Virus record (IMG/VR): IMGVR_UViG_2909251562_000001
DNA: 49,376 nt
Source of the DNA: a virus
Taxonomy: Duplodnaviria; Heunggongvirae; Uroviricota; Caudoviricetes
Direction: 5' to 3' (one strand)
In this document: positions 42,701-48,195 of the stretch, one piece after another
How the letters are laid out: each line of letters begins with the position of its first letter
Numbering within the stretch: the first letter of the stretch is position 1
Translations under genes and position numbers: made by a program
Notes under the pieces: model-generated
The model's database searches: none
The model's input: the letters and a program-made list of their open reading frames with translations, nothing else
Told to the model about the DNA's origin: nothing

Positions 42701-45700
42701 GTGAGTATGGCAGTAAAGATTTCAGGTGTACTGAAAGATGGTGCAGGTAAGCCGATACAAAACTGCACCATTCAGCTAAAGGCCAGGCGCAACAGCACCA
42801 CGGTGGTGGTGAACACAGTGGCCTCAGAAAACCCGGATGAAGCCGGGCGTTACACAATGGACGTCGAGTATGGTCAGTACAGCGTCAGTCTGTTGGTGGA
42901 GGGATTCCCGCCGTCACACGCCGGGATTATCACTGTATATGAGGACTCAAAGCCGGGCACACTGAATGATTTCCTCGGTGCAATGACGGAGGATGATGTC
43001 CGGCCAGAGGCACTGCGCCGTTTTGAACTGATGGTGGAAGAGGTGGCGCGTAACGCGTCCGCAGTGGCACAGAACACGGCAGCTGCGAAGAAGTCAGCCA
43101 GCGATGCCAGCACATCAGCCCGTGAGGCGGCAACCCATGCGACTGATGCTGCAGACTCAGCACGCGCAGCCAGCACGTCAGCCGGACAGGCCGCGACGTC
43201 GGCTCGGTCAGCGTCTTCCAGCGCAGGAACGGCATCAACAAAGGCCAGTGAAGCAGCGAAAAGTGCTGCTGCTGCAGAGTCATCAAAAAGCGCGGCAGCT
43301 ACCAGCGCCAGTGCCGCGAAAACGTCAGAAACGAATGCCGCAGCATCACAAAAATCGGCAGCCACTTCTGCATCCACAGCGACCACGAAGGCGTCAGAAG
43401 CTGCCACCTCGGCACGGGGTGCGGCGGCCTCAAAAGAGGCAGCGAAATCATCAGAAACGAATGCATCATCAAGTGCCAGTAGTGCAGCTTCCTCGGCAAC
43501 GGCGGCAGGAAATTCCGCGAAGGCGGCAAAAACGTCCGAGACGAACGCCAGGTCTTCTGAAACAGCAGCGGGACAGAGCGCCTCAGCTGCGGCAGGTTCA
43601 AAAACAGCGGCTGCGTCGTCTGCCAGTGCCGCGTCAACAAGTGCCGGGCAGGCCTCAGCCAGTGCCACCGCCGCCGGAAAATCGGCAGAAAGCGCCGCAT
43701 CATCCGCTTCAACAGCCACAACGAAGGCTGGCGAAGCCACTGAGCAGGCCACTGCAGCAGCGAGGTCTGCTTCTGCAGCAAAAACCTCTGAAACAAATGC
43801 AAAGACTTCAGCAGACAATGCTGCTTCCTCTAAGGCGGCAGCCGCATCGTCCGCTGGTTCAGCGGCGTCATCGGCATCATCTGCGTCTGCTTCAAAAGAT
43901 GAGGCGACCAGACAAGCGTCAGCAGCGAAAGGTAGTGCCACGACAGCAACAACGAAAGCATCAGAGGCGGCAGGCAGTGCGACGGCTGCATCTCAGAGCA
44001 AAGTTGCTGCTGAATCCGCGGCAACGCGTGCCGAAACAGCAGCAAAACGGGCAGAGGATATTGCTGATGCCGTATCTCTGGAAGATGCGAGCACGACGAA
44101 AAAAGGTGTGGTTCAGCTTAGTAGTGCAACCAATAGCACATCTGAAACGCAGGCTGCAACGCCGAAAGCAGTAAAGGCCGCGTATGACCTTGCTGGCGCA
44201 AAATATACCGCTCAGGACGCCACGACGGCACAAAAAGGGATAGTCCAGCTCAGTAGTGCCACCAACAGCACGTCTGAAACACTGGCTGCGACACCGAAAG
44301 CGGTTAAGGCGGTAATGGATGAAACAAATAAGAAAGCCCCATTAAACAGCCCGGCGCTGACCGGAACGCCAACAACGCCAACTGCGCCAAAAGGGACTAA
44401 TAATACTCAGATCGCAAGCACGGCTTATGTGATGGCCGCGATTGCCGCACTTGTAGATTCGTCACCTGATGCACTGAACACGCTGAACGAGCTGGCGGCG
44501 GCGCTGGGCAACGACCCGAATTTTGCGACCACCATGACTAACGCGCTTGCGGGTAAGCAACCGAAAGATGCCACCCTGACGGCGCTGGCCGGGCTTGCTA
44601 CTGCGGCAGACAAGTTTCCGTATTTTACGGGGAATGATGTCGCCAGCCTGGCAACTCTGACAAAAGTCGGGCGGGATATTCTTGCGAAATCGACCGTTGC
44701 CGCTGTTATCGAATACCTCGGTTTACAGGAAACGGTAAATCAGGCTTCTGGCGCATTACAGAAAAAACAGAACGGCGCAGATATTCCCGATAAAAAACTA
44801 TTCCTGCGTAATATCGGCACAACAAATTCAACAACCATGTCTTTTAGTGGTGGGGCTGGATGGTTCAAACTGGCAACTGTAACAATGCCACAAGCCAGTT
44901 CCGTGGTTTACATAAGCCTGATTGGTGGCGCAGGGTATAACGTTGGCGCCCCGCATCAGGCAGGCATCTCTGAGCTGGTTCTGCGTGCCGGAAATGGGAA
45001 TCCAAAAGGTATTACTGGTGCATTATGGCGACGAACATCGGCTGGATTTACTAATATTGCATGGGTGAATACATCCGGTGATACCTATGATGTTTATGTT
45101 GAAATAGGTAATTACGCCACAGGTGTTAATATTCAGTGGGATTATACCGGTAACGCCAGCGTAACGATTCATACATCACCAACTTATACAGCGAATAAAC
45201 CAACAGGCCTGACAGATGGAACTGTATATGTAATTTACAGTTCGCACATTAAACCGACTGCTGCTGAGGTTGGGGCGTTGTCATTATCTGGCGGTCAATT
45301 GAATGGTGCTCTGGGCATCGGAACATCCAGTGCTCTTGGCGGTAACTCGATTGTTTTGGGTGATAATGATACCGGATTTAAACAGAATGGTGATGGTATT
45401 CTGGATGTTTACGCTAATAGTCAGCGAGTATTCCGCTTTCAGAATGGAGTGGCTATTGCTTTTAAAAACATTCAGGCAGGTGATAGTAAAAAATTCTCGC
45501 TATCCAGCTCCAACAACTCCACGAAGAACGCAAAGTTTTATTTATGGGGCACTTCATCAAGACCAACTGTTGCAGAGCTTGGTGATGATTCAGGCTGGCA
45601 TTTCTATAGTCAGCGAAATACAGATAACTCAGTAACATTTGCTGTTAACGGTCAGATGCAGCCCAGCAACTGGGGGAATTTTGATTCCCGCTATGTGAAA

Positions 45701-45880
45701 GATGTTCGCCTGGGTACGCGTGTTGTTCAATTGATGGCGCGTGGTGGTCGCTATGAAAAAGCCGGACACGCAATTACCGGATTAAGAATCATTGGTGAAG
45801 TAGATGGCGATGATGAAGCCATCTTCAGACCAATACAAAAATACATCAATGGCACATGGTATAACGTCGCACAGGTGTAA
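42701..45880 (+). CDS. stf: side tail fibre Stf (current orientation of the invertible C-terminus)
   Basis: 1059 aa; N-terminus MAVKISGVLKDG as in lambda Stf; long Ala/Ser-rich repeat region; the C-terminal part lies inside the invertible segment. Confidence 0.9.
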   Translation: MSMAVKISGVLKDGAGKPIQNCTIQLKARRNSTTVVVNTVASENPDEAGRYTMDVEYGQYSVSLLVEGFPPSHAGIITVYEDSKPGTLNDFLGAMTEDDVRPEALRRFELMVEEVARNASAVAQNTAAAKKSASDASTSAREAATHATDAADSARAASTSAGQAATSARSASSSAGTASTKASEAAKSAAAAESSKSAAATSASAAKTSETNAAASQKSAATSASTATTKASEAATSARGAAASKEAAKSSETNASSSASSAASSATAAGNSAKAAKTSETNARSSETAAGQSASAAAGSKTAAASSASAASTSAGQASASATAAGKSAESAASSASTATTKAGEATEQATAAARSASAAKTSETNAKTSADNAASSKAAAASSAGSAASSASSASASKDEATRQASAAKGSATTATTKASEAAGSATAASQSKVAAESAATRAETAAKRAEDIADAVSLEDASTTKKGVVQLSSATNSTSETQAATPKAVKAAYDLAGAKYTAQDATTAQKGIVQLSSATNSTSETLAATPKAVKAVMDETNKKAPLNSPALTGTPTTPTAPKGTNNTQIASTAYVMAAIAALVDSSPDALNTLNELAAALGNDPNFATTMTNALAGKQPKDATLTALAGLATAADKFPYFTGNDVASLATLTKVGRDILAKSTVAAVIEYLGLQETVNQASGALQKKQNGADIPDKKLFLRNIGTTNSTTMSFSGGAGWFKLATVTMPQASSVVYISLIGGAGYNVGAPHQAGISELVLRAGNGNPKGITGALWRRTSAGFTNIAWVNTSGDTYDVYVEIGNYATGVNIQWDYTGNASVTIHTSPTYTANKPTGLTDGTVYVIYSSHIKPTAAEVGALSLSGGQLNGALGIGTSSALGGNSIVLGDNDTGFKQNGDGILDVYANSQRVFRFQNGVAIAFKNIQAGDSKKFSLSSSNNSTKNAKFYLWGTSSRPTVAELGDDSGWHFYSQRNTDNSVTFAVNGQMQPSNWGNFDSRYVKDVRLGTRVVQLMARGGRYEKAGHAITGLRIIGEVDGDDEAIFRPIQKYINGTWYNVAQV
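43080..44060 (+). repeat. imperfect tandem repeats encoding the Ala/Ser/Thr-rich Stf shaft
   Basis: Motif AAK(T/S)SETNA recurs at least four times within a low-complexity A/S/T-rich stretch; both other frames and the antisense strand stay open here. Confidence 0.7.
44706..44731. other. gix/hix-like 26-bp invertase recombination site (left)
   Basis: TTATCGAATACC-TC-GGTTTACAGGAA inside stf; inverted partner at 47921-47946; inverted homology extends about 57 bp further into the segment. Confidence 0.75.
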
Positions 45881-46411
45881 ATGATGCAGCATTTAAAAAA
45901 TATTAAGTCAGGAAATCCAAAAACAAAAGAGCAATATCAGCTAACAAAGAATTTTGATGTTATCTGGTTATATACAGAAGACGGTAAAAACTGGTATGAG
46001 GAAGTGAAAAACTTTCAGCCAGACACAATAAAGATTGTTTACGATGCAAATAATATTATTGTCGCCATCACCAAAGATGCATCCACGCTTAATCCCGAAG
46101 GTTTTAGCGTTGTCGAGGTTCCAGATATTACAGCCAACCGCCGCGCTGATGATTCAGGAAAGTGGATGTTTAAGGATGGAGCTGTGGTTAAACGGATTTA
46201 TACGGCAGACGAACAGCAACAACAGGCCGAATCACAAAAGGCCGCATTGCTTTCCGAAGCTGAATCAGTCATCCAGCCGCTGGAACGCGCTGTCAGGTTG
46301 AATATGGCAACAGACGAGGAACGCACACGACTGGAAGCATGGGAACGCTACAGTGTTCTGGTCAGCCGTGTGGATAGGGCAAATCCTGAATGGCCACAAA
46401 AGCCTGAATAA
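45881..46411 (+). CDS. tfa: tail fibre assembly protein Tfa
   Basis: 176 aa; start abuts the stf stop (TAAATG); typical Tfa N-terminus [21 protein letters not shown]. Confidence 0.9.
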
Positions 46412-46416
46412 AAATT

Positions 46417-46436
46417 AAGGCCCGCTATCGGGCCTT
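46417..46436. terminator. stem-loop between convergent tfa genes
   Basis: AAGGCCCG-CTAT-CGGGCCTT between the two convergent tfa stops. Confidence 0.55.
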
Positions 46437-47918: not shown

Positions 47919-47920
47919 GT

Positions 47921-47946
47921 TTCCTGTAAACCGAGGTTTTAGATAA
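47921..47946. other. gix/hix-like 26-bp invertase recombination site (right)
   Basis: TTCCTGTAAACC-GA-GGTTTTAGATAA, matching the Gin/Hin/Pin site consensus as recalled. Confidence 0.75.
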
Positions 47947-48000
47947 TGGCGGTTTCTGGCCTGCATGGCATGATTTGTGCTTTTGGACGGGAGATTCAGC

Positions 48001-48195
48001 GTGCTGATTGGCTATGTAAGGGTATCAACAAATGACCAGAATACAGACCTGCAACGAAACGCTCTTGTTTGTGCAGGATGTGAACAAATATTTGAAGATA
48101 AATTAAGCGGAACAAGGACAGGCCAACCTGGATTAAAACGTGCTTTAAAGCGCCTTCAAAAAGGTGACGCACTGGTTGTCTGGAAACTGGACTGA
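48001..48195 (+). pseudogene. pin: truncated serine DNA invertase (Pin/Gin/Hin family), N-terminal about 65 residues only
   Basis: Encodes (M/V)LIGYVRVSTNDQNTDLQRNAL...LVVWKLD including the catalytic Ser context, then stops. Intact invertases are roughly 185-190 aa. Confidence 0.8.

Follow-up and report, generated by a model that had tools for sequence, protein, structure and literature searches.

Can a tail-fibre switch still be thrown after the gene for its own recombinase has been broken? This question is raised by the right-hand part of the window, by which we mean the whole stretch of 49,376 bases analysed here (IMG/VR record IMGVR_UViG_2909251562_000001), one complete lambdoid prophage of enterotoxigenic-type E. 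coli. A sequence-only reading of this DNA had described, at 44706-48195, an invertible segment with alternative C-terminal parts of the tail fibre Stf, bordered by two inverted recombination sites and locked by a truncated Pin invertase. Our analysis suggests that the locus is probably an orphan stf inversion switch of the Mu G type in a prophage integrated at ompW, whose own invertase is dead and which flips only when a compatible invertase acts in trans.

The two recombination sites lie within the arms of an inverted repeat of 95 nucleotides (nt).

44700-44794: left arm of the 95-nt inverted repeat (repeat search and alignment)
44706-44731, plus strand: left 26-bp gix-type site, within the stf open reading frame (ORF), TTATCGAATACC-TC-GGTTTACAGGAA, with the central TC at 44718-44719
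47858-47952: right arm of the 95-nt inverted repeat (repeat search and alignment)
47921-47946, plus strand: right 26-bp site, TTCCTGTAAACC-GA-GGTTTTAGATAA, with the central GA at 47933-47934

The arms are 92% complementary, and background pairs in the same repeat list measured 14-26 nt; an inverted repeat of such length and identity is not a product of chance. The coordinates that had been proposed for the sites were exact. Each site is built of two 12-bp half-sites around a 2-bp core, the two stand in inverted orientation, and alignment of the left site with the reverse complement of the right one gave 2 mismatches, both of them in outer half-sites. From Mu gixR (read from AF083977) the right site departs at 1 base, and the left site is the same, base for base, as the Phi4_5prime site published for EC958 (PMC4134206 Table 3). 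Homology indeed continues inward from the site, as had been noticed, and its length is about 63 bp (44732-44794, with one mismatch before identity decays) instead of about 57 bp; the perfect stretch common to both arms is 48-52 bp. Measured from core to core, the invertible unit extends from 44718/19 to 47933/34, about 3.2 kb. The previously given end of the feature, 48195, therefore includes the invertase remnant, and the unit itself ends at 47933/34.

Fibre and chaperone genes are arranged across the left site and within the segment as follows.

42701-44717, plus strand: constant N-terminal Stf part, codons 1 to about 672, used in both switch states (Pfam phage_tail_N, 1e-71; Phage_fiber_2 repeats)
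44720-45880, plus strand: variable Stf C-terminus A, in the expressed orientation; P88-type, with only the last ~200 nt Mu/D108-like
45884-46411, plus strand: tfa A, chaperone for variant A, Mu U-like (Pfam Caudo_TAP, 1e-36; 93% DNA identity to Mu U)
46440-46973, minus strand: tfa' B, chaperone for variant B, Mu U'-like, silent as oriented (Pfam Caudo_TAP, 8e-37; homology to Mu U')
46976-47932, minus strand: variable Stf C-terminus B, Mu S'-like, with no start codon of its own, silent as oriented (Pfam gp37_C; 93% DNA identity to Mu S')

As now oriented, the constant part (labelled in RefSeq as a prophage tail fiber N-terminal domain-containing protein) is in frame with variant A, and together they form an stf ORF of 1059 amino acids (aa) at 42701-45880. 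The minus-strand frame of variant B is open from the crossover site to the stop at 46976, and in-silico inversion (42701-44719 joined to the reverse complement of 46976-47932) gave a 991-codon Stf ORF with zero internal stops. Two full Caudo_TAP genes are present on opposite strands in mirror image, with further inverted repeats between them. The 3.2-kb segment with a Stf C-terminus and a tfa gene on each strand was thus recovered as described, with mirror-image domains and in-frame fusion both ways.

Searches of phage genomes placed this arrangement in a known family. Window positions 45889-48191, which cover the right two-thirds of the segment, showed 93% DNA identity to the Mu stretch from U through U' and S' to the 5' end of gin, and comparable stretches were found in D108 (93%), the P7 C segment (96%), the P1 C segment (90%) and the P2-like phage P88 (94%). 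Judged from these alignments, the relation to the phage switches is one of direct DNA homology and goes beyond mere resemblance. Variant A does not correspond to Mu Sv; its resemblance is to fibres of the P88 type, with P88 and the Yersinia phage vB_YpM_39 matching from query position 1 and D108 matching only from window position 45674. The earlier assignment to the Mu G or e14 P type of switch agrees with the site sequence, the mirror-image cassettes, the two in-frame fusions and the 93% DNA identity to Mu.

Next to the right site, where switches of this family have an intact serine invertase of about 185-196 aa, only a fragment of such a gene was found.

48001-48195, plus strand: invertase remnant, with a GTG start, 64 gin-type codons and then TGA; Ser9 is present, and TGA stands where intact genes have Arg65
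48196-48237, plus strand: pinE-type codons 66 to about 79 of the invertase, out of use downstream of the stop
48238-48327, plus strand: tfa 3' fragment fused to the invertase remnant, the deletion junction (Caudo_TAP profile positions 104-130; last ~30 tfa codons)

The remnant is identical to Gin residues 1-64 (193-aa Gin; PDB 4m6f/3uj3) at 61/64 positions, including the catalytic Ser9, and it covers only positions 2-73 of the 145 in the Pfam Resolvase profile (PF00239). It cannot be an active recombinase because the conserved arginines after residue 64, helix E and the helix-turn-helix DNA-binding domain are gone. With the resident invertase broken, the switch is therefore not autonomous, and the locus has the cis elements of the family without the enzyme. 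A truncated invertase had been recognized correctly by the sequence-only reading, though its size (about 65 codons, where we count 64 followed by TGA) and its simple naming as Pin needed revision. The junction was resolved by alignment with the intact 196-aa invertase of a P2-like prophage of strain 99-3165, Mu gin and K-12 pinE. Positions 1-191 of the invertase ORF are gin-type, and the DNA of the first 64 codons is 97-100% identical to gin vs about 80% to pinE; in contrast, 48206-48236 matches K-12 e14 pinE at 30/31 positions and is diverged from Mu gin. From these comparisons, the remnant is a gin/pinE mosaic. Random decay past the stop codon was considered for the sequence downstream and rejected in view of this 30/31 identity. 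The transition from gin to pinE is sharp, at about 48192, and the nonsense codon sits in the switch zone. The fused tfa 3' end, annotated in RefSeq as a partial tail fiber assembly protein, forms a 96% direct repeat with 49279-49354.

Inversion in this family also depends on an enhancer, which is bound by Fis and located within the 5' part of the invertase gene. For Hin, an element of 65 bp serves this purpose, about 100 bp away from one hix site (PMC3798978); in Mu the coding region of gin contains three Fis sites, at a distance of about 550 bp upstream from the start of mom (PMC3378877). This position is near gin nt 120, in a region that is kept in the remnant. The remnant matches Mu gin without a single difference over nt 1-121 (window positions 48001-48121; 100% identity) and has 5 differences between there and nt 191; the identity of the first stretch is consistent with a second constraint on the DNA such as a putative enhancer. 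The 5' end of the remnant may thus retain a Fis-dependent enhancer. The P2-like prophage of 99-3165 matches the first ~110 nt; substitutions are found in the 67-bp spacer before the identical stretch and in the codons after it.

If these elements work as in the phage systems, the constant stf part would read across the left site into one of two C-terminal receptor-binding parts, each then followed by its own Tfa chaperone gene. A dimer of a Gin/Pin-family serine invertase would bind each 26-bp site, the sites would come together in synapsis at the Fis-bound enhancer, and the enzyme would cut at the central TC/GA dinucleotide, rotate and religate. Reversal of the 3.2-kb segment would bring the Mu S'-like variant B into expression in place of the present variant A. 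Loss of the invertase has left 64 codons, a TGA, about 14 pinE-type codons and a deletion fusing the gene to a tfa 3' end, and with the cis elements kept (both sites, and presumably the enhancer) the segment would be an orphan substrate, to be flipped by the invertase of another prophage.

Does the segment occur in nature in the other orientation? The predicted flipped junction was built and searched in 5,426 complete E. coli genomes, and strain WS1933D carried it at 702/702 nt, the truncated invertase and the tfa fusion included. Its prophage has the same insertion site, the same gpJ frameshift, the same truncated protein (WP_071598134.1) and the same methyltransferase, with the segment inverted. 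The flanks are those of the window except for a single-nucleotide polymorphism (SNP) inside the inverted repeat (44767/47885), which moved with the segment; therefore, the crossover was confined to 44715-44766, the interval that contains the core. Besides, the chromosomal flanks of WS1933D and of strain TW11681, which carries the window orientation, showed 0/6000 differences. Window positions 42600-49376 are 100% identical in four complete genomes, FDAARGOS_1077, 67-1, S1-NGR-02-A and NZ_LR883000.1, and TW11681 has 1 mismatch. All five of these assemblies share one orientation, so that the strict orientation comparison is 5 vs 1 assemblies.

The co-resident invertase genes were then compared through a locus count: a query that combined a single-copy anchor (trpA-trpB) with the 3' two-thirds of two intact invertase genes, that of Mu (gin) and the P2-like allele, was searched, and the places matched in each record were counted. 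In TW11681, 67-1, S1-NGR-02-A and LR883000 only the anchor was found, with no Gin-type invertase locus by megablast or by the more sensitive blastn. In the same count WS1933D had three extra loci matching the 3' part of Gin-type invertase genes. A count with K-12 pinQ gave one PinQ/PinR-type locus in every lineage strain, flipped or not, and the idea that the host wholly lacks serine invertases was rejected as too strong. By gene content, the flipped strain is set apart by its predicted Gin-type genes, and the window's host, though without a Gin/Pin-type gene, does have serine recombinases. Since the chromosome shows no detectable Gin/Pin-type invertase in the window's lineage, the segment most likely stays static there. 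Elsewhere, the enzyme acting in trans would presumably be a Gin-type invertase. These findings fit the earlier statement that the segment is frozen unless an invertase acts in trans, which had been accompanied by a suggestion to search the host for such a gene.

A different outcome, continued switching of the segment in the host of the window through the PinQ/PinR-type chromosomal gene or, less likely, through a recombinase carried on a plasmid, appears unlikely on balance. PinQ shares only 38% identity with PinE, yet it is reported to invert the P segment of e14 in trans (PMC12529663), and such action is what the presence of the locus in every lineage strain would allow by analogy. However, the e14 sites are unlike the gix-type sites of the window, five of five assemblies with the window sequence have the same orientation, and a locus shared by flipped and unflipped strains gives no account of their difference, for which the Gin-type loci do account. 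As for plasmids, the four plasmids of TW11681 encode only a Tn3 TnpR, which shares 38% identity with Gin, and a serine recombinase of 188 aa that shares 52%, the latter at 23869-24435 of the retrieved pTW11681_100 sequence. This protein is closer to Gin than to the Tn3 or gamma-delta resolvases, which are themselves about 38% identical to Gin. Yet its gene has a resolvase-like position, divergent beside a Tn3-family transposase, and the protein lacks the residues specific to invertases, which are the basic K47/R48/K51 in helix B of Hin and the Q151/R154/L155 motif of the DNA-binding domain that contacts Fis (PMC3798978): its helix B reads GIQAALHFA vs GLKRALKRL in Gin, and it has L..QL vs Q..RL. 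An NCBIfam search did not separate invertases from resolvases, all matches being far below the curated cut-offs. On another plasmid of TW11681, pTW11681_74 (IncI1), a truncated shufflon recombinase gene, rci, lies beside pilV (34945-35046 of the retrieved sequence), a second case in this strain of an invertible-DNA system deprived of its recombinase.

The interior of the segment was compared between WS1933D and the window as well. Positions 44720-46598 are identical, and 53 substitutions are all found in 46599-47806. This 1.2-kb patch spans the 3' part of tfa' and the silent Stf C-terminus. Its clustered differences indicate a probable recent gene conversion from the cassette of another prophage; the donor was not found among two other truncated-invertase prophages, a P2-like prophage and Mu, the best match to the WS1933D version being 97.9%. 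One may ask whether the locus is instead a frozen relic, in which orientation differences arose by RecA-dependent recombination between the 95-nt repeats or by wholesale replacement of cassettes. The 48-52 bp perfect stretch in the arms could support rare homologous exchange, and the patch itself records exchange with other cassettes at this locus. We nevertheless regard this explanation as very unlikely: the converted patch lies wholly inside the segment and cannot by itself change orientation, the orientation correlates with the presence of Gin-type invertase genes, and in a homologous ST131 module the inverted homology is imperfect and only about 36 bp long (3 mismatches; PMC4134206 Table 3), yet this module is frequent in both orientations and occurs in both within one culture.

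The junction between truncated invertase and tfa was present in 535 of the 5,426 complete E. coli genomes, in prophages at several integration sites (ompW, dusA and potB). In 57 of these 535 genomes the Mu S'-like cassette of the window lies beside the stub, and the resulting 57 to 1 ratio is no clean orientation ratio, as the partner cassettes differ between prophages. ST131 is the largest group among the junction carriers. Its copy, as seen in strain H105, is located at ompW and has an stf pseudogene, a stub with extra mutations and inverted homology that extends barely beyond the 26-bp sites. Even so, the ST131 homologue was found in both orientations, in up to 363 genomes vs up to 152, with matches of 100% identity across the truncated junction in each set, and serial isolates of one series are split by orientation, with 4/1-1 and 4/4 vs 4/0. 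The description of the window's segment as locked accordingly holds in a conditional sense but is too strong, since the ST131 module, with a more decayed stub, occurs in both orientations and switched within a culture (PMC4134206). With WS1933D and ST131, both natural orientations are seen for the family across strains, and not within the window's own strain.

Several points weigh against the interpretation of an orphan switch that flips in trans. The case for an enhancer consists of sequence identity to Mu gin and a statement in the literature, and a scan for Fis sites (G..C 15-mers with an A/T-rich centre, in pairs 46-50 bp apart, over 47935-48240) gave many weak matches and no convincing pair, and was uninformative. 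The static state of the segment in the window's strain is drawn from gene content and five assemblies of the same orientation. The Gin-type loci of WS1933D, known by number only, are putative invertase genes, and all lineage strains carry the PinQ/PinR-type locus, whose K-12 counterpart is reported to act on the e14 segment. The 53 clustered substitutions mean that recombination with other cassettes has also acted here. Finally, the two ST131 orientation counts are upper bounds since the 80% coverage cut-off is just passable by a locus with an intact invertase (593/736 nt); full-length 100% matches are present in both sets, and the certain rows are only those listed among these matches, 8 and 12.

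Takeover by the host, in which the Stf variants of a dead prophage would serve as phase-variable surface or receptor-masking proteins that block phages, with the cis elements under selection, seems to us very unlikely, for although an inversion-generated Stf chimera of the cryptic prophage e14 (StfE2) is reported to have such a role (PMC12529663), the truncation junction persists across many genomes and integration sites, and stf and both tfa genes are intact here despite the broken gpJ, cro and invertase, stf of the homologous ST131 module is a pseudogene whose neighbouring stub accumulates mutations, and descent together with prophage recombination would explain the wide distribution.

What follows from an orphan switch dependent on trans-acting invertases is both practical and conceptual. 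Orphan segments cause alternative contigs and inconsistent annotation in roughly 1/10 of complete E. coli genomes, with partial "tail fiber protein" and "recombinase family protein" pseudogenes as the symptoms, and the orientation recorded in an assembly depends on the other prophages of the strain. Conceptually, a substrate of site-specific recombination outlives its enzyme and becomes dependent on the prophage community of the cell. The observation is also relevant to recent claims that Stf inversions of cryptic prophages serve the host in phage defence. A host-serving, phase-variable Stf is unlikely and unsupported here, and the more general proposal that orphan Stf cassettes are kept in about 10% of E. 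coli genomes by host use, with any Gin/Pin-type prophage invertase, incoming or resident, toggling a receptor-masking Stf tip by way of the kept crossover sites and the stub with its putative enhancer, must be considered quite doubtful. If it were true, control of the switch would lie with whatever prophages the cell contains, in place of an enzyme of its own, for a defence like that of e14 StfE2.

The setting of the switch bears on its present function. In TW11681 the prophage is located between an intact ompW and a 3' ompW fragment adjoining yciE-trp; the integrase gene is at window 1-1131, and a tfa fragment reaches the last base of the window. The prophage carries at least three defects: frameshifts in the tail-tip gene gpJ (38497-41975, with the split near 39153-39192) and in cro (about 6965-7208), and the insertion of an IS66-family element at 19403-22018, between the lysis and terminase genes. 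Because of these defects, no current host-range role is expected for the switch; of the host-range switch proposed by the sequence-only reading, the type of switch stands and the present role does not.

Additional features were observed around the segment. The middle of stf (43080-44040) is rich in Ala, Ser and Thr and consists of degenerate 33-nt repeats, of which seven copies were found, with a motif like AAKTSETNA. In close relatives the Stf gene is annotated with lengths of 2886, 3090 and 3174 nt, and this variation probably arises through the repeat region. In the RefSeq annotation of TW11681, three tRNA genes (Ile, Thr and Gly) follow the gene for the Q antiterminator, at about 17331-17640. 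One further gene lies downstream of the invertase remnant.

48382-49050, minus strand: class I S-adenosylmethionine (SAM)-dependent methyltransferase gene, 222 aa, flanked by two tfa 3'-end fragments

The direct repeats that bracket it, 48230-48305 and 49279-49354, are 96% identical tfa 3' ends. The gene is present in the truncated-invertase prophages of E1433 and ST131 H105 and not in that of JX2, and it looks like a moron cassette gained or lost via recombination between tfa ends.

Comparison with known systems shows how much of this locus is shared and what is particular to it. The likeness to Mu extends to the right site, 1 base off gixR, and to the 67 bp that in both separate the segment boundary from the start of the invertase gene. 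In its logic the locus agrees with Mu, D108, P1, P7 and P88, with a constant fibre N-terminus, alternative C-termini and a chaperone for each. In contrast to Mu, P1 and P2, which are myoviruses, the carrier here is a lambdoid, siphovirus-type prophage with a Stf-type fibre, and it further differs from Mu in that variant A is not Sv and the invertase is truncated and a gin/pinE mosaic. The P segment of e14 in K-12 is likewise an invertible Stf/Tfa segment in a defective prophage, and codons 66-79 of the remnant are of its pinE type; however, the e14 segment is 1.8 kb long, uses other crossover sites and has an intact pinE, whereas the first 64 codons here are gin-like. Inversion across prophages has precedents in PinQ, PinR and PinE acting on e14 and, as cited, in Fin acting on the Salmonella H segment (PMC12529663). 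In the latter case a prophage invertase (Fin of Fels-2, besides Hin) similarly acts in trans on a chromosomal segment, although that segment controls a flagellin promoter, carries an intact hin inside and encodes no tail fibres.

The closest relative is Phi4 of the ST131 strain EC958. In the PacBio assembly of this strain, Forde et al. (2014, PLoS One, PMC4134206) obtained alternative contigs for invertible tail-fibre segments of Phi1, Phi2 and Phi4. The Phi4 sites, TTATCGAATACCTC GGTTTACAGGAA (the left site of the window) and TTATCTAAAACCTC GGTTTACGAGAA, flank a 3,106-bp segment that was assembled in both orientations from one culture (PMC4134206). Because the Phi4 invertase is severely truncated, the authors concluded that inversion occurs in trans, possibly by the invertase of Phi1, whose sites are nearly identical (PMC4134206). 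Phi4, too, is a lambdoid prophage at ompW, with an identical left crossover site (TTATCGAATACCTCGGTTTACAGGAA), a segment of about 3.1-3.2 kb, mirror-image cassettes of Stf C-terminus and tfa, the same fusion of truncated invertase and tfa fragment and the same downstream methyltransferase. It differs from the window in its variable cassettes, in 2 changes in the inner half of the right site and in an inverted homology of about 36 bp vs 95 nt here; in the ST131 module, moreover, further mutations have hit the stub and stf has already decayed to a pseudogene. ST131 also has a co-resident invertase (Phi1), whereas the window's lineage is without a Gin-type gene. The arrangement is thus already known, and its ST131 homologue was published with the same interpretation; taken alone, another copy of a published module is of little weight. 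What is added here is the exact structure of the truncation (the gin/pinE mosaic, the nonsense codon and the tfa fusion) with its frequency in E. coli, and a near-identical natural strain pair in which orientation goes with the content of Gin-type invertase genes.

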